Shown here: positions 12,142-36,734 of the stretch, one piece after another | Layout of the letters: each line of letters begins with the position of its first letter | Numbering within the stretch: position 1 is the first letter of the stretch | Assembly (NCBI GenBank): GCA_938041555.1 | Contig: CALIAC010000011.1 | Coordinates: forward strand, 18,466-82,465 | Reading direction: 5' to 3' | Source of the DNA: an uncultured Candidatus Saccharibacteria bacterium | Lineage (GTDB): Bacteria > Patescibacteriota > Saccharimonadia > Saccharimonadales > Saccharimonadaceae | Length of the DNA stretch: 64,000 bases | The notes under the pieces: generated by a model | What the model was told of the DNA's origin: nothing | What the model saw: only the letters and a program-made list of their open reading frames with translations | The model's database searches: none | Translations under genes and position numbers: made by a program

Positions 12142-13431
12142 TTAAATCATTGTGTTGTCATATCGGCTGCGGTTCTTCGCGTGGCGGCGCTTGCGGCCGA
12201 CGAACCACCACCAGGCACCACCGCCACCCGCTGCAGCGAGAACTACTGCCACAGCGATAAGAATGATGATCGTCCAATTGGGCCCTGCCTCTTGCTTGCG
12301 CACAGTGGGCTGCTGGCGCTTTTTGCTTGGCTGTGGCTTTTTCTTGTCCTTCTTTTCATCCTTTTTCTTGTCTTTGTCGTCTTTTTTCTTCTCCTCAGGC
12401 TTGGGAGCGGGCTTTGGCGCTGGTGCAGGTGTTGGCGCGGGCTGAGCCGTTACTTTCAGGCTAAAGGTGTCGGCGCAATCAGCCGTGAGCGGCGTGGCTG
12501 CACCCACTGGCACATTACCGCGCTGGATACTCCCCAGGCCGGCCAAGCCACCCAGCAAGGTAGATGAATCATTATACGGGTTGATATTTGGGTCTGCCTC
12601 CTCGGCTGGTGTGGTCGGGCCACGATCGGAGGTCGTATACACCCAGCCAGCATTGCGCTCGCGGGCCTTGGCTACCACCTGAGCCTGCTGCTCGTTGCTG
12701 CCCACACTGTGGATGACGTGCCACATTTTGTAGGCGTTGGCTGGGTTTTTCTCGAAGTTGGTGGCCGTTGGGTGAGTTAGGTCGTAGTAGCTATCACTCA
12801 GGTAGCGCGCTGCCGAGGTCTCGGCATTCAAGAATACATCGCCATAAGGCATGACGGACTCACCGAGGAAGCGTGTACCCGCATTGTGAATGACGATGGA
12901 GCCAGGGTGCTTGACCTTGACGTAGTTGTAGAGGTTGGCCAGGTAGCAGGTCTTTTGGCCACTACTGTGGTTGTCGGCTTCGTCGAAGAAGATTCCCTTC
13001 ACATTGGGGTAGAGCGCATACCAGCGGTCGATCTCTGCTGCCACCTCAGCAATATTGCGCGTCTGGCGGCCATGCTTGACGTAGCCAATGTATTTGACAC
13101 CAAGCGAATCGAGCCGGGCCAGGGCCTTTACATAATCACTACTAACCGTTGTACCTGGCCCGCTCGAGGGGTTAACCACCGCAAAGGGCATCTTGCTCGA
13201 GACATTAGCCATATCATTCCAATACTGGTTGTTGCCACCCTGCATGGGGTAGCTATAGGCTGGCATCATGATGGACTGCTGCGGCGCCAGAGCACTCACC
13301 TGCGGCGCAAGCAACTGCCCCAGCACCACCACAGCGGCCACAAACACCAGCACAGCCCGCCGTACCTGCTGCATACTCCACCGCATCGCCACACCCGTGG
13401 ACGCCCGTGCTGCGTCTGTCACATCCTGCAT
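12142..13431 (-). CDS. spherulation-specific family 4 (Sph3/GH135-like) putative glycoside hydrolase, secreted, with C-terminal membrane anchor
   Basis: It carries 'MPAYSYP..YWNDM...MPFAVVNPSSGPG...YV..L...GVKYIGYV...EIDRWYALYPNVKGIFFDEA', the pattern I associate with spherulin-4 family proteins. An N-terminal signal-like helix is present (VLVFVAAVVVLGQLLAPQVSA). The C-terminus has a PT-rich linker, a K/D-rich block, a TM helix and a WWW-RKRR tail. Start is uncertain (ATG 13431, 13386 or 13374). Confidence 0.6.
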   Translation of the reverse strand: MQDVTDAARASTGVAMRWSMQQVRRAVLVFVAAVVVLGQLLAPQVSALAPQQSIMMPAYSYPMQGGNNQYWNDMANVSSKMPFAVVNPSSGPGTTVSSDYVKALARLDSLGVKYIGYVKHGRQTRNIAEVAAEIDRWYALYPNVKGIFFDEADNHSSGQKTCYLANLYNYVKVKHPGSIVIHNAGTRFLGESVMPYGDVFLNAETSAARYLSDSYYDLTHPTATNFEKNPANAYKMWHVIHSVGSNEQQAQVVAKARERNAGWVYTTSDRGPTTPAEEADPNINPYNDSSTLLGGLAGLGSIQRGNVPVGAATPLTADCADTFSLKVTAQPAPTPAPAPKPAPKPEEKKKDDKDKKKDEKKDKKKPQPSKKRQQPTVRKQEAGPNWTIIILIAVAVVLAAAGGGGAWWWFVGRKRRHAKNRSRYDNTMI

Positions 13432-13603
13432 AGTCACTCTCTATGATAGCATCTTTGTGCACAAATGGGTATTATGTTGTGTATGTCACAATGTTTTTGC
13501 GTGAACTTCCCTGTTGTGGCACGTTAATTGCAAACTCAGTGGTATCAGTCTATTATCTCCATTACTTCATCCATATTAACTATAGAATGGAAGAATGAAG
13601 TGA

Positions 13604-31533: not shown

Positions 31534-32748
31534 CTACAGCGTAGGCGGAGCGCGATGCCGACGCCGTCGCCACCACCACACCAGCCAGCCAGCCAGTGCG
31601 ATGAGTAGCAAGCACAGGCTAATCAGCAGTGCTGGCACAAAGTTGCTGATAAGTTCGGCCAGCGGGCCCTGCGCAGCAAACGCACCCTTTTTCTTCTTCA
31701 CCGTCATCCGTTTAGTGCCCGGCTTTTTATCTTTCTTGTCGTCCTTTTTCTCTGGTGGAGTAGCCGGTGGTTTTTCGCTAGTGGTTGGAGTGCCGCTTTG
31801 GTATATCTTGACATAGTCGATGAGGAAGGTCTGGTTGGCAAACTTCTTCGATGAGTCGGGCGGGTGCTCCTCACTCTTCCACTCCACGTAATCGTTAAGA
31901 ATAACATACCACGTATCGTCAAAGACCTGCTTGAATTGATTCGCATCCATGCCCATTTTTGCTGGTTTTTCTGCTGGAACCCGAGTGGTTGGATGACTCT
32001 TCTCATCGCCCGCTCGATAGTTATACACCAGCACCGGCTGGTTATCCACGAAGAATCTGACCGTCTCACCATCGTATTCTGTCGCCCAGACATGCCAGTT
32101 GTTCGCCAACGTCACTGGGGATGGTATGAGGTTCTCTCGGCTATGCCCTAGCCCCTTTGTCTTCCATATCTGCGATGACGGGCTGTGGTAGCAGCGAATA
32201 TGCGTCGTCGACCATGTGTAGGTCGGCGTCCATGAATACCACTCTAGCATATCGAGCTCACCATAGGGGTCATTCGCTTGCTTGTTGTTGTTGCAATTGG
32301 CAAGCGTCACACTATTGCGCAGCCAAATAGCTGGGCGCGTCCCATTCTCGCCATTCCAATTAATCTTCGCCCGTACCTCGACGCGGAATGGTTTATGCCC
32401 ATCGAGCACCCGACCCGACTCCACTCGCCCACTCTGGTAGCGTGTCATCTTGCCAGATGGGCACGGCTCTTGGCTCGCATTACTATCGCCCAGTGGCTCA
32501 GCCACACTCGACACACAGTGACGCCGGGTCGTAATCTGCAAAGCGCCGTTAGTCACCGCAACATTGTTGGCGCTATATGCCAAATGTTCCTTGCCATAAT
32601 TATCCTTATTTTGCTGAAGAACCTTCCAATTCGACAGTGACGTCGTAAACTCCTCGTTGTACACCATCTGCCACTGCTGCGCCTGGGCGACCCCACCAAA
32701 GATCACCGACACAGCACCCGCAACAAGGACACTCACTACTCCATACAT
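31534..32748 (-). CDS. glycoside hydrolase family 16 (beta-glucanase-like), secreted, with C-terminal membrane anchor
   Basis: Start trimmed to ATG 32748 (SD AAGGTGG 5 nt upstream). Signal peptide is MYGVVSVLVAGAVSVIFGGVAQA. The GH16 catalytic motif E-x-D-x-x-E appears as 'GELDMLEW'. The C-terminus has a PT-rich linker, a K/D-rich block, a TM helix and a WWW-RRRRHR tail. Confidence 0.7.
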   Translation of the reverse strand: MYGVVSVLVAGAVSVIFGGVAQAQQWQMVYNEEFTTSLSNWKVLQQNKDNYGKEHLAYSANNVAVTNGALQITTRRHCVSSVAEPLGDSNASQEPCPSGKMTRYQSGRVESGRVLDGHKPFRVEVRAKINWNGENGTRPAIWLRNSVTLANCNNNKQANDPYGELDMLEWYSWTPTYTWSTTHIRCYHSPSSQIWKTKGLGHSRENLIPSPVTLANNWHVWATEYDGETVRFFVDNQPVLVYNYRAGDEKSHPTTRVPAEKPAKMGMDANQFKQVFDDTWYVILNDYVEWKSEEHPPDSSKKFANQTFLIDYVKIYQSGTPTTSEKPPATPPEKKDDKKDKKPGTKRMTVKKKKGAFAAQGPLAELISNFVPALLISLCLLLIALAGWLVWWWRRRRHRAPPTL

Positions 32749-32812
32749 CAGCCCACCTTGTCGCTGCACTCCTATCTCCTCAGTCTGCACTATCCGCGCT
32801 TATATACGTTAT

Positions 32813-32917: not shown

Positions 32918-33391
32918 CTACGCTAACACCTCTCCACCGCCTTGGCTGCTCTGTGCCCTTCGTGCTAACTCTTGCGCAACCTGCCGCCGAGCACGCGCTC
33001 GCTCAACATTGTCTGTTCCACCAACAACATCATCTGTATCTGGCTGATGTTTTGTGATGTCCGCCATATGCGCCGCAAGGCATTCAGCCTGCACTGGGCA
33101 ACTGCCGCATATCGTTTTCCCTTTTTCAATATTTCCCCAATGCTCCCGCTTTCTCCCATCGAGGCCAATAAAGTACTGTTCATCCTCGAGGCTACAAGCA
33201 GCTTGTCCAATCCATACTGATCGAGGGGCTGGCTTATATCCGCCGCGAATCAGCCGCTCAGTATATACCGCAGGGCTTACGCCATTCTTTATCTGTTCTC
33301 GCATTGCCAGCGTGGCAGGGGTTGGCTTTCTTGGTTGTTCACGCATCATAAGTTTTTTCTCTTTTGCTATACAAAACGTTGGCTTCTGCAT
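32918..33391 (-). CDS. WhiB-like (Wbl) Fe-S transcription factor, single domain
   Basis: 'W..QAAC-x31-C-GS-C-PVQAE-C-LAAHM...DVVGGT..VER' is the four-Cys Wbl pattern (C-xn-C-x2-C-x5-C) plus a G[VI]WGG-like turn. Start is uncertain (GTG 33403, ATG 33391 or 33349). Confidence 0.7.
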   Translation of the reverse strand: MQKPTFCIAKEKKLMMREQPRKPTPATLAMREQIKNGVSPAVYTERLIRGGYKPAPRSVWIGQAACSLEDEQYFIGLDGRKREHWGNIEKGKTICGSCPVQAECLAAHMADITKHQPDTDDVVGGTDNVERARARRQVAQELARRAQSSQGGGEVLA

Positions 33392-33509
33392 TATTCCACA
33401 CACCTGTTATTTTGCCAAGCATAAGCAGTGTGTTCCGCCGCTTGTCGCTCTACCACTGCATCACCTAGCGGCGCCGAGCCCGCCGCTGCTTGGGTTTGGG
33501 CATACCCCA

Positions 33510-34184
33510 CTACCGGCGGTCGGCTTGGGTTGTGCCACCACGGACATCACCAGCAGCGATAATACGTTGGTACCCCTGCAGCGCAAAGAACAAGCACTCG
33601 GCTGCTACTGGGCACTCAGCACAGTCCTCACGCCGCTCGGGCTCTATCCGCTGCTTCGTCTCGGCATCAATGCACAGCGCCAAGCGAGCAAAAGCCTGCG
33701 GCGCAGGGATATGCCCAATATGTCGCCGCTCGGCCATACACTGCTCCGCCCAGGCAATCCGTGCCTCGGGCGTATCATTAGTATGAACAGTATGATGCAT
33801 AGCGCTCGTGAGCGTGGTGGACTGGCTCGGAAGGTCCGCCAGTGCAGACTCGTCCGTTAGTTGCTCGCGCTGCTTCGCCGTGAGGCCAGCACAGATCCCA
33901 ACCGACACACCTTCTCTCACCGCATATGCCGCGCAGACGTCAATCACCGCACAACCAATGCAGCGCCGCAACGCCAGTGCCGTGTCTTCTGGTTTGCCGC
34001 TAAAATATTCTTCGCTCGTGGCCGGGCTACAGGCAGCATCGCGCATCCAGTCCTTTGGCAGTGGTGCGTCTCCCCGTTGCCGCGTCAATATACCAAGCCA
34101 AAACAACCGCGATGCAGGATCGCTTGGCACATAGCGTCGTAGTTGCTCTGGTCGTGATGGCTGTGCAGCTGGCTGCTCTTCCAT
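33510..34184 (-). CDS. tandem two-domain WhiB-like protein
   Basis: Domain 1: 'WMRDAAC..EEYF..-C-IG-C-AVIDV-C-AAYAV...GICAGLTAKQR'. Domain 2: 'C..-C-AE-C-PVAAE-C-LFFAL...GDVRGGTTQADRR'. Start is uncertain. ATG 34184 avoids overlapping the divergent gene; alternatives are 34259 and 34268. Confidence 0.65.
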   Translation of the reverse strand: MEEQPAAQPSRPEQLRRYVPSDPASRLFWLGILTRQRGDAPLPKDWMRDAACSPATSEEYFSGKPEDTALALRRCIGCAVIDVCAAYAVREGVSVGICAGLTAKQREQLTDESALADLPSQSTTLTSAMHHTVHTNDTPEARIAWAEQCMAERRHIGHIPAPQAFARLALCIDAETKQRIEPERREDCAECPVAAECLFFALQGYQRIIAAGDVRGGTTQADRR

Positions 34185-34250
34185 ACTATCTTTATTGTAC
34201 CATTCCCCACGCTGCCAACCATAAACGTCATCATCTGCTATACTAGAGAT

Positions 34251-34826
34251 ATGAATCATCCATCTCATCCGACGACAGTCCTTGCCTTCGTTGGCCTCTC
34301 GGGCGCAGGCAAGAGCGAGGCGGTCAACCATGTGGCGCGCCTTGGTATCCCCAAGGTCTACGCTGGTGGCATCCTCTACGACGAAATGCGCCGCCGCGGA
34401 ATCGCTATCACCCCGCAATCACAAGCCGAATTTCGCAAAGCCTGGCGCGAAGAGGCTGGCAAAGACATCATCATTCGCACTGCTGCCGAGCAAATGCAGC
34501 GCCTTGCCGCCGCTGGGCAGCGCCACATTCTCTTTGACGGGCTCTACTCCTGGACGGAGTACAAGTACCTTACCCACCACTTCCCGGGTGAGCTCGTTGT
34601 GGCGGCCATCGTGGCACCCAAGCAGCTCCGTCACCGCCGCCTTGCTCAGCGGCCCGAGCGGCCCTTTACCGCACAGGAAGCGATCGCCCGCGACTGGTCG
34701 GAGATTGAGGATATTGAGAAGGGTGGCCCTATCGCCATTGCCGACCACTTCATCTCCAACAGCCACAATCTCACCGAGCTCCACCAGCAGGTCGACACCC
34801 TTTGCCGCGAGATTGGTTGGATGTAA
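34251..34826 (+). CDS. P-loop nucleotide kinase, CoaE/UPF0200-like
   Basis: 191 aa. Walker A 'GLSGAGKS', then 'LFDGLYSWTEYKYL' and 'R...RP....E...RD..E......G..IAIADHFISN', resembling dephospho-CoA-kinase-like / UPF0200 small kinases. Confidence 0.55.
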   Translation: MNHPSHPTTVLAFVGLSGAGKSEAVNHVARLGIPKVYAGGILYDEMRRRGIAITPQSQAEFRKAWREEAGKDIIIRTAAEQMQRLAAAGQRHILFDGLYSWTEYKYLTHHFPGELVVAAIVAPKQLRHRRLAQRPERPFTAQEAIARDWSEIEDIEKGGPIAIADHFISNSHNLTELHQQVDTLCREIGWM

Positions 34827-34955: not shown

Positions 34956-35408
34956 ATGAACAACCAGCCAACACCCCAGCAACCTGCTGCACCGCAGCCG
35001 CAGCCAGCACCGCAACCACAACCGGTGGCCCAGCCGCAGCCGCAGCCGCAACAGACATATCAATATCAACAACCCTACCAGCAGCCAGTTGCGCCAGTGC
35101 CACAGCCAGCTATTCAGCCACAGCCAACACCATATGCCTATCCCGTTCGTTATGATAACCCTGGTGAAACACTGGGTGTCATTGGATGCGTCTTGAGCTT
35201 CTTTGGTATCTCTATCGGTGGTATTCTCCTTGGCATTATTTCGCGCAATAAGTCTAAGGAAGCCGGTATGTCTACAACGTGGGGTAACGTTAGTCTGGGC
35301 TGGGGCATCTTTGGGTCAGTCTGCTGGTGTCTTATCTGGCTTTTCTGGATACTTGTGTTTGTTGGTGTATTGTCCAAGCCATCTTGGTGGTACTATTATT
35401 ACTACTAA
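34956..35408 (+). CDS. DUF4190-like small membrane protein with a P/Q-rich N-terminus
   Basis: SD is GAGGAG. The N-terminal PQPQPAPQPQPVAQPQPQPQQ low-complexity region is followed by two hydrophobic helices 'LGVIGCVLSFFGISIGGILLGIISRNKSKE...' typical of DUF4190. Confidence 0.65.
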   Translation: MNNQPTPQQPAAPQPQPAPQPQPVAQPQPQPQQTYQYQQPYQQPVAPVPQPAIQPQPTPYAYPVRYDNPGETLGVIGCVLSFFGISIGGILLGIISRNKSKEAGMSTTWGNVSLGWGIFGSVCWCLIWLFWILVFVGVLSKPSWWYYYYY

Positions 35409-35708: not shown

Positions 35709-36734
35709 CTACTGCTGCAAATACTCGTACAGCTTCTTGGCGTCCTTGTGCTTGCGCAGCTTTGCCAGAGCCTTGGCCTCAATCTGACGGATGCGCTCGC
35801 GCGTCACGGCAAACTCCTGCCCAACTTCCTCCAGCGTGTGGCTCTTGCCATTCTCTAGACCAAAGCGCATTTTGATAATCTTCTGCTCGCGGTCGCTCAA
35901 GGTCGAGAGAATATCTTGCACCTGCTCCTTGAGAAGCTGGTTGGAGGCCGACTCTTCAGGGCTGACCGTATCTTCATCCTCAATAAAGTCCCCCAGCACC
36001 GACTCCTCCGAGTCGTCGCCATCGCGCCCCACACCAGCGTCCAGGCTGCTGATGTCTTGCTTAATCTTCATCACATATTCGACCTTATCCGGCTCCATAT
36101 CGAGCTCTTTGGCAAGCTCGGTAATAGTTGGCTCGCGGTTGAGGTCTTGGGTCAGGCGGCGCTGAGTGCGCAGCAGCTTGTTAATCGTCTCCACCATGTG
36201 GACAGGAATACGAATAGTGCGCGCTTGGTCGGCAATCGCCCGGGTAATCGCCTGGCGAATCCACCAAGTGGCATAGGTGCTAAACTTAAAGCCCTTATCT
36301 GGGTCAAACTTCTCTACCGCCCGTAGTAGCCCGGTGTGCCCTTCCTGGATAAGATCGAGAAAATCAAGGCCACGACCACTATACCGCTTGGCAATGCTTA
36401 CCACCAGGCGCATATTAGCCTCGGCCATTTTGTCTTTGGCGCGCTTATCGCCCTGCTTAATCCGGTAGGCTAGGTCTACCTCTTCGTCAGCACTCAGCAG
36501 CGGGATCTTACCAATCTCGCGCAGGTGCAGCCGCACCGAGTCGTCGCTAATATCATCAAAGTATTGGTTGCTGTTGAGAATCTCCTCCGGCGTATCTTCT
36601 TCCTCAAGTGCCGCGAGGTCGGGCTCCATATCGTCGACGGCTGGATCCATCATCGGTGGCTGGGCATCGGGTGGCGCTGCCTGAGCTGTGGTTGCTGGTT
36701 TTTTTTGCTTGGTATCCTTATCGTCGGTTGCCAC
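35709..36734 (-). CDS. rpoD: RNA polymerase sigma-70 factor (primary-type)
   Basis: 341 aa. Region 2 is '[29 protein letters not shown]' and region 4 '[24 protein letters not shown]'. The GTG start has SD AAGGAG 7 nt upstream and overlaps the dnaG 3' end by 17 nt. Confidence 0.95.

Follow-up and report, generated by a model that had tools for sequence, protein, structure and literature searches.

The DNA analysed here (hereafter the window) is a stretch of 64,000 nucleotides from an uncultured Candidatus Saccharibacteria bacterium, which carries two adjacent minus-strand genes for WhiB-like (Wbl) proteins, wblA and wblB. The initial annotation had read three Wbl-type domains in the letters, one in 32918-33391 and two fused in 33510-34184, each with the C-xn-C-x2-C-x5-C pattern of cluster ligands and a downstream turn. 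Profile searches bear this out. Scored alone against the Pfam Whib model (PF02467, gathering cut-off 23.6 bits), the WblA domain reaches 37.8 bits, the first domain of WblB 44.5 bits and the second 26.0 bits, and both the cysteine pattern and the turns (DVVGG, GICAG and DVRGG, respectively) are present as read. None of the three turns is the G-[VI]-W-G-G of canonical Wbls, the GG being kept in two of them. The PHROG WhiB families are also matched by these proteins. No NCBIfam model matches WblA or WblB, and proteins of this type already carry a label at NCBI. A hidden Markov model built from 147 Wbl representatives found no other Wbl open reading frame (ORF) in the window.

The gene wblB (33510-34184, minus strand) encodes 224 residues in the window and 237-239 in its relatives, and its maximal ORF extends back to a TTG at 34418. 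Its product matches the Whib model at 59.7 bits in two stretches. From the N- to the C-terminus, proteins of this family consist of an extension of 45 residues, a Wbl domain close to the canonical form, a linker that is conserved, a second, degenerate Wbl domain and a basic tail. Domain 1 (residues 46-109; 33858-34049, minus strand) covers the full profile (positions 1-65) and carries W46, the aromatic pair Y60-F61 and cysteines spaced as C52-x22-C75-x2-C78-x5-C84, followed by the turn GICAG. Domain 2 (residues 165-218; 33531-33692, minus strand) displays F165, cysteines spaced as C171-x16-C188-x2-C191-x5-C197 and the turn DVRGG, whose GG is conserved together with the Thr and Arg behind it; the identification of C171 as its first ligand relies on invariance and not on alignment, and C149 varies among the orthologues. 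With two domains in 224-239 residues, WblB exceeds the small single-domain format of Wbl proteins (about 80-140 residues), into which WblA (143-157 residues) fits. Pairwise identities between the domains (19-28%) do not tell an internal duplication of domain 1 from a fusion with a wblA-like gene as the source of domain 2. MAFFT aligned single-domain Wbls with the first domain of the tandem proteins, and the resulting alignment is uninformative for domain 2. An extended -10-like element, TGGTACAAT (34194-34202, minus strand; a pattern match read from the sequence), precedes the wblB ATG by 9 nt, and the mRNA made from it may have no leader or a very short one.

A scan for WblB relatives in one genome per GTDB species returned 38 loci (L001-L038). 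All of them belong to Candidatus Saccharibacteria metagenome-assembled genomes (MAGs), several of which have human oral sample labels, so that the earlier suspicion of a non-actinobacterial genome proved right. The tandem gene is full length in 37 of these 38 loci, where it is 72-99% identical to the window copy, and it therefore results neither from a frameshift nor from an assembly join of two genes. The 37 orthologues are identical at the eight ligand cysteines, at C98 of the first turn and at many further positions. The ratio of nonsynonymous to synonymous substitutions (dN/dS) is 0.18 over the whole gene; Nei-Gojobori estimates over 33 genomes are 0.13, 0.12 and 0.13 in domain 1, the linker and domain 2, as compared with 0.47 in the 45 N-terminal residues. 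Given the value of 0.13 for each of them, both domains are under purifying selection. The tandem fusion is as unusual as had been supposed. A profile of the tandem protein, searched against 1.84 billion representative proteins (50% identity), recovered one full-length cluster (P0008) and two fragments; all other matches among those listed (E 1e-9 or weaker) concern domain 1 only, and no match to domain 2 alone is found among these listed results. Likewise, the 150 best relatives include no Wbl+Wbl protein outside this wblB family. Thus far, the tandem Wbl-Wbl architecture appears to be undescribed and, among the proteins searched, confined to one clade.

The window copy of wblB differs from its relatives at its end. 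In all 37 orthologues, the sequence ...ADR[RQ] is followed by a 15-residue basic tail (QWG.PKPK.R..RRR) that is absent from the window product. A premature TAG (33510-33512, minus strand) stands where the relatives read CAG (Gln) and where 37 of 37 orthologues continue, and the orphaned tail remnant WGMPKPKQRRARRR (33465-33509, minus strand) can still be read in frame up to the ancestral stop at 33465-33467. The tandem ORF delimited by the initial annotation is therefore genuine, but position 33510 is not its natural end, since the stop cuts off 15 residues kept in relatives. Either a nonsense mutation arose here recently or the TAG is an error of sequencing, and the window allele may bind its partner without contacting DNA, or be on its way to loss.

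The second gene, wblA (32918-33391, minus strand), encodes 157 residues from the ATG at 33391 and 143 from the ATG at 33349, whereas its maximal ORF starts at a GTG at 33403; orthologues are 143-157 residues long. In the 157-residue numbering, its Whib match spans residues 60-132 and its domain (32996-33214, minus strand) carries W60, the aromatic pair Y73-F74, cysteines spaced as C66-x28-C95-x2-C98-x5-C104 and the turn DVVGG, followed by a basic helix (RARARRQ). A promoter-like site (33390-33418, minus strand; TTGGCA, a 17-nt spacer and AATAAT, with TG before the -10) has 10 of 12 consensus matches, as judged by pattern matching. As its -10 overlaps the ATG at 33391 and many orthologues begin at the later Met, the ATG at 33349 is the likelier start.

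The locus of the two genes is a hot spot of divergence. Over the 38 genomes, the slot occupied by wblA, between wblB and a gene encoding a GH16-like protein, holds three allele classes that share their N-terminal region but diverge in their Wbl domains (only 18-35% identity between classes), while the flanking genes are 94-100% identical. Class c2, with the turn DVVGG, is that of the window and of 17 other loci; class c3, with the turn LIVGG and a long insertion, occurs in 13 loci and class c1, with the canonical turn GIWGG, in 8. The locus L001 has a wblB 99% identical to that of the window but a wblA of class c3. This pattern looks like cassette-style allelic replacement. Pairwise dN/dS values obtained for wblA were discarded: a mean dN of 0.48 within a class of about 95% identity points to mis-registered matches. 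The neighbouring wblB also evolves far faster than its flanks, with a mean dN of 0.092 and a dS of 0.52, as against mean dN values of 0.002 for rpoD, 0.008 for the AAA-kinase gene described below, 0.017 for dnaG and 0.019 for the GH16-like gene, these four flanking genes having as a group a dS of 0.21-0.30. Furthermore, wblB displays two N-terminal and two C-terminal haplotypes, and because all four combinations occur (in 8, 4, 11 and 15 genomes), it is a recombinant mosaic.

The two genes lie in the core chromosome. All 38 loci share one gene order: dnaG, rpoD, a small membrane-protein gene, an AAA-kinase gene on the reverse strand, wblB, wblA and the GH16-like gene. The synteny of wblA and wblB is also kept in three metagenome loci. 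The positional anchor of the locus is the AAA-type nucleotide-kinase-like gene (34251-34826, plus strand; Pfam AAA_17, AAA_18 and AAA_33), which is divergent from wblB. The neighbourhood consists of housekeeping genes and contains neither phage genes nor a prophage, GC content is unremarkable across the locus, and PADLOC gives no defence-system match for WblA or WblB, the locus not lying in a recognisable defence island.

The range of the family is at odds with what has been published. Publications up to February 2026 treat Wbl proteins as exclusive to Actinobacteria and actinobacteriophages, a 2026 paper among them (PMC13013590), and full-text searches of the literature retrieved no paper on a Wbl in Saccharibacteria, Patescibacteria or the candidate phyla radiation, nor any on a tandem Wbl. 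This restriction does not hold here, as the 38 loci belong to Candidatus Saccharibacteria and as relatives retrieved through RpoD also have Wbl genes. With RpoD as the anchor, a scan of metagenomes recovered 80 loci (L039-L118; RpoD identity 71-99%), 48 of which could be tested beyond the AAA-kinase gene. A Wbl gene lies directly divergent from that gene in 9 of these 48 loci, three from the clade of the window and six environmental (L076, L079, L086, L089, L092 and L108). The DnaG of the latter six is only about 56% identical to that of the window, and their Wbls are single-domain, canonical, WhiB2-like or WhiB1-like proteins with the turns GIWGG, GVWGG, GIFGG or GVLGG. Since such deep relatives have a Wbl gene at the same spot, the position is old in Saccharibacteria and points to a long residence in this lineage. 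In one of these loci, the gene facing the AAA-kinase gene is a 499-codon stop-to-stop ORF (L092:4751-6247, plus strand) whose canonical WhiB2-like domain stands at the very C-terminus (residues 430-493, 81 bits) and is preceded by 400 residues without Pfam match; this is either a large N-terminal fusion to a Wbl or two genes in one frame.

Beyond Saccharibacteria, a broad profile of Saccharibacterial Wbls matched 7,710 proteins at a flat level of about 107 bits; the named relatives are actinobacterial WhiBs, one of the top matches (P0193) sits in a typical actinobacterial whiB2 neighbourhood, and the flat scores single out no nearest donor. An ancient origin of the Saccharibacterial Wbls in Actinobacteria is plausible, given how strongly this phylum dominates among the named relatives.

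The presumed partner of both proteins is the primary sigma factor encoded by rpoD (35709-36734, minus strand), which matches the Pfam sigma-70 regions 1.2, 2, 3 and 4 and the NCBIfam RpoD models. In Mycobacterium tuberculosis, all seven Wbls, as well as the phage Wbls that were tested, bind region 4 of sigmaA (PMC13013590). The His516-Pro517 pair of this region is taken into the cluster pocket, which is lined by an aromatic patch made in WhiB1 of W3, F17, F18 and W60 (AP1 to AP4), and each of the H516A, H516F and P517A substitutions abolishes Wbl binding (PMC6954389, PMC13013590). The published definition of the patch asks for at least two aromatic residues among AP1-4, including at least one at AP2 or AP3, in a three-dimensional alignment (PMC13013590). 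By sequence register, in place of such a three-dimensional alignment, W46, Y60 and F61 of WblB domain 1 and W60, Y73 and F74 of WblA occupy AP1-3, whereas domain 2 offers F165 at AP1 and has neither AP2 nor AP3.

On the sigma side, the C-terminus of RpoD aligns without gap with the KLRHPSRSKKL of solved SigA proteins (residues 466-527 of M. tuberculosis SigA corresponding to query positions 2-63), and Lys328-His329 (35748-35753, minus strand) stand at the positions of the docking pair His516-Pro517. Where KLRHPSRS is widely conserved, the C-terminal loop of region 4 reads KLRKHKD[AS]KKL. The motif KLRK[HQN]KD occurs in all 79 RpoD relatives with a readable C-terminus (71-99% identity), those with a Wbl gene close by and those without one alike. 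The Lys-His change, common to all of them, therefore appears to be an old trait of the whole clade, and docking on this sigma factor would need a surface unlike that of Actinobacteria. The initial annotation had suggested altered partner binding from the loss of the turn Trp. The direction of this proposal finds support in the sigma factor, but its argument does not, because the W60A substitution in WhiB1 has little effect on sigma binding (PMC6954389) and the loss of this Trp is therefore weak evidence. A second sigma-70-family gene, 37-46% identical to RpoD, was seen a few kb downstream of rpoD in some environmental relatives (L058:13747-14721, L060:12405-13310 and L098:5193-6128); none was seen within 7 kb in the clade of the window.

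Several known systems resemble the two proteins in part. The best match of WblB domain 1 in the PDB is the Streptomyces venezuelae WhiB of the WhiB2 subfamily (PDB 8DY7/8DY9; chain 8dy7_H, E 6e-6), with which it shares the W-x5-C motif, the aromatic pair, C-x2-C-x5-C and the layout of the turn. However, the identity is about 30%, the turn is GICAG instead of GIWGG, and WblB has in addition its 45-residue extension and a fused second domain. Domain 1 shows neither the identity typical of WhiB2 orthologues (above 60%) nor their gene neighbourhood: cofD/cofE and the DUF3499 gene, which accompany whiB2 in Actinobacteria, are absent around wblB, in an organism that is not an actinobacterium. By contrast, the environmental Wbls L079 and L092, found at the same locus, are clearly WhiB2-like. 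The complex of M. tuberculosis WhiB1 with sigmaA region 4 (PDB 6ONO) resembles the situation proposed for WblB domain 1 and WblA in AP1-3, by sequence register (PMC6954389, PMC13013590), but differs in the partner pair, which is Lys328-His329, and in AP4, which is Cys, Val or Arg; domain 2 keeps AP1 only. The WhiBs of actinophages (for example of Mycobacterium phages Amgine, Yuna and Ekdilam, and of Gordonia phage Malisha) belong to the same Pfam and PHROG families, and their carriers, like that of the window Wbls, need an actinobacterial host; none of the phage proteins is a tandem, however, and the window genes lie in a housekeeping chromosomal context. Wbls of the WhiB7/WblC type have a C-terminal basic or AT-hook DNA-binding tail. 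The WblB orthologues likewise end, after their last helix, in a Lys/Arg-rich sequence (PKPKQRRARRR), but no AT-hook RGRP core was seen in this tail, which follows a second Wbl domain, and the window copy is devoid of it. Lastly, metagenomic multi-domain Wbls combine a Wbl domain with other modules, such as a helix-turn-helix (P0050) or T5orf172/MUG113 (P0040); among the 150 best relatives, only the wblB family pairs two Wbl domains.

All in all, wblA and wblB are best read as fast-evolving, lineage-specific Wbl regulators. More precisely, we consider them to be chromosomally resident Wbl genes of an oral Candidatus Saccharibacteria lineage whose products would dock on the lineage's own sigma factor through a modified interface, a reading drawn from sequence comparison to which we give a probability of roughly 0.55. 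An ancestral single-domain Wbl gene, which diverged in orientation from the AAA-kinase gene at a site downstream of dnaG-rpoD, would have given rise to the tandem protein in a genus-level clade, where a second and highly polymorphic Wbl gene, wblA, came to adjoin wblB. By homology, the four cysteines of each domain would hold a [4Fe-4S] cluster reporting the oxygen, nitric oxide or redox state, and region 4 of the primary sigma factor of the cell itself would be the docking site of WblB domain 1 and of WblA. For contact with DNA near the -35 element, and hence for the tuning of transcription, WblB may use its basic tail and WblA its RARARRQ helix. Domain 2, which has the cluster ligands without the sigma-binding aromatic patch, would be a second sensor or a structural module more probably than a second sigma site.

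Various observations weigh against this reading. The RpoD of the window has no His516-Pro517 pair; as mutants of this pair abolish binding in M. tuberculosis, the binding of WblA and WblB to their own RpoD is putative. None of the three domains has the AP4 Trp, and domain 1 has Cys in its place. The match of domain 2 is a half-profile one (positions 22-63), and its alignment by hhalign with Saccharibacterial Wbls (89% probability, E 2e-6) extends over 40 columns that comprise only Cys2-Cys4, the turn and the next helix. The AlphaFold2 models have predicted local distance difference test (pLDDT) scores too low for use, whether for the whole tandem protein with 15 orthologues (37.8) or for domain 2 with a mixed alignment of 65 sequences (51.1). 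Concerning the age of the locus, the nearest sampled outgroups (DnaG 62% identical) have no Wbl at the AAA-kinase position, which implies either repeated loss or repeated insertion; the conserved position could thus come from repeated insertion at one site, and WblB domain 1 is only 21-29% identical to the environmental Wbls. Finally, besides the tail loss in the window, the wblB tail is frameshifted in cluster P0006 (79 member sequences), wblB is deleted after residue 59 in L038 (6001-6260), where it is joined to intergenic sequence, and wblA of class c3 is frameshifted in L015 (6720-7500) and L027 (6720-7320). On account of these lesions, both genes look dispensable in some strains, although some lesions in MAGs may be assembly errors.

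Such lesions, together with the high amino-acid divergence, are what would be expected if the Wbl genes of this clade were relaxed relics and the wblB of the window already a pseudogene. This is quite unlikely in view of the dN/dS of 0.12-0.13 across both domains and linker, of the invariant cysteines and other residues, of an ORF that is intact in 37 of 38 loci and of a truncation that costs the window copy its last 15 residues only. A different objection concerns domain 2 alone, which might be a cysteine-rich zinc or structural module resembling the Cys2-Cys4 half of a Wbl domain, WblB then being a one-cluster protein with a C-terminal DNA-binding module. The half-profile match, the 40 aligned columns that leave Cys1 out, the missing AP2 and AP3 and the lack of any listed match to this domain by itself speak for this possibility, which we regard as rather doubtful: a fourth invariant cysteine (C171) has a Wbl-like x16 spacing and comes after F165, which stands at AP1, the turn keeps its GG along with the conserved Thr and Arg next to it, and the score exceeds the Pfam cut-off. 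As it bears on one component, it is compatible with resident Wbl genes acting on the lineage's own sigma factor.

The two other explanations involve the actinobacterial host. According to a passage of PMC12369343, TM7x and other Saccharibacteria are obligate epibionts of Actinobacteria, and the initial annotation had taken the genes as a sign of transfer from an actinobacterial host or phage. If so, they would be recently acquired foreign cargo, which would suit a family whose named relatives are overwhelmingly actinobacterial and whose phage matches are all actinophage WhiBs, in bacteria that live on Actinobacteria; one environmental Wbl (L092) is even 76% identical to a WhiB2-like metagenomic protein. 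Against the best of some 270 Wbl sequences closest to them, however, the domains of the window reach no more than 32-46% identity, the actinophage WhiBs reach 31-39% over WblB domain 1 only, and IMG/VR scans returned no close relative. Because no close donor was found and deep relatives hold a Wbl at the same position, recent transfer is not supported; with the unremarkable GC content and the housekeeping context syntenic in 38 genomes added, we deem it very unlikely, and the claim does not stand in the form in which it was made. Alternatively, the proteins could be mimics that are sent into the host, or act upon it, and bind region 4 of the host's SigA, like phage WhiBs that hijack host transcription, in place of acting on their own RNA polymerase. 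This would suit an RpoD devoid of the His-Pro pair that is essential in every tested Wbl-sigma interaction, and the evolution of the locus, much faster than that of its flanks (dN of 0.092 for wblB versus 0.002-0.019), with three allele classes and a recombinant mosaic, is of a type typical of interaction genes. Exporting a folded Fe-S protein is, however, difficult, and no signal peptide or hydrophobic N-terminus is visible in WblA or WblB. Moreover, environmental relatives combine canonical Wbls with this Lys-His sigma, the loss of the AP4 Trp fits an altered sigma factor rather than the canonical one of the host, and no experimental hint points this way, all of which makes host-directed action highly improbable.

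The Wbl genes described here depart from known ones in their lineage, which is not actinobacterial, in their tandem architecture, in a paralogue slot that is hypervariable and in a presumed partner sigma without the canonical docking pair. As stable chromosomal genes of Saccharibacteria, the ultra-small epibionts of Actinobacteria, they break the rule that restricts the family to Actinobacteria and their phages, and they link epibiont and host by a shared family of regulators. Three options follow for the Wbls of this lineage, namely another way of docking, another partner or action on the host sigma, and each of these outcomes would widen the known mechanisms of the family. In the milder case, a second mode of Wbl-sigma docking, independent of His-Pro, would exist in a phylum thought to be without Wbl. 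If the proteins did act on the host, which retains the His-Pro pair, the allele classes and the mosaic tandem gene would be expected to track host range. Whatever the partner, the alleles, the mosaic recombination and the recurrent truncations, set between near-identical housekeeping genes, make this a candidate locus for strain-level adaptation in oral Saccharibacteria.

Some features of the neighbouring genes deserve mention. The AAA-kinase gene gives a weak partial match to the PADLOC 'dCTPase' model (E 7e-8), and it is linked to dnaG-rpoD even across deeply diverged Saccharibacteria. Directly downstream of wblA, the GH16-like gene (31534-32790, minus strand) encodes a protein of 418 residues that weakly matches GH16 glycoside hydrolases (24 bits) and has a stretch rich in Pro and Lys as well as a hydrophobic anchor at its C-terminus; this protein is conserved across the 38 loci and may act as a glycanase at the cell surface. 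On the other side, a gene at 34956-35408 (plus strand) encodes a protein of 150 residues without family match, with two or three predicted membrane helices and a Pro/Gln-rich N-terminal half that varies strongly between otherwise near-identical loci (tblastn identity 47-100%).

At a larger scale, the window contains no transfer RNA gene and no Rfam match, and its housekeeping genes include polA, dnaG, rpoD, argS, pyrG, corA, pnp, truB, fpg, holA and hsp20, as well as those of a class I ribonucleotide reductase (nrdAB). A protein of 431 residues (12142-13437, minus strand) strongly matches Spherulin4 (PF12138, 133 bits), a family unusual for a bacterium with a reduced genome, and several ORFs of 220-520 residues without Pfam match lie nearby. 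Almost the whole of positions 1-64000 has a negative GC skew (cumulative -2.49), and the minus strand carries nearly all long ORFs, which fits a single replichore with a strong gene-strand bias.

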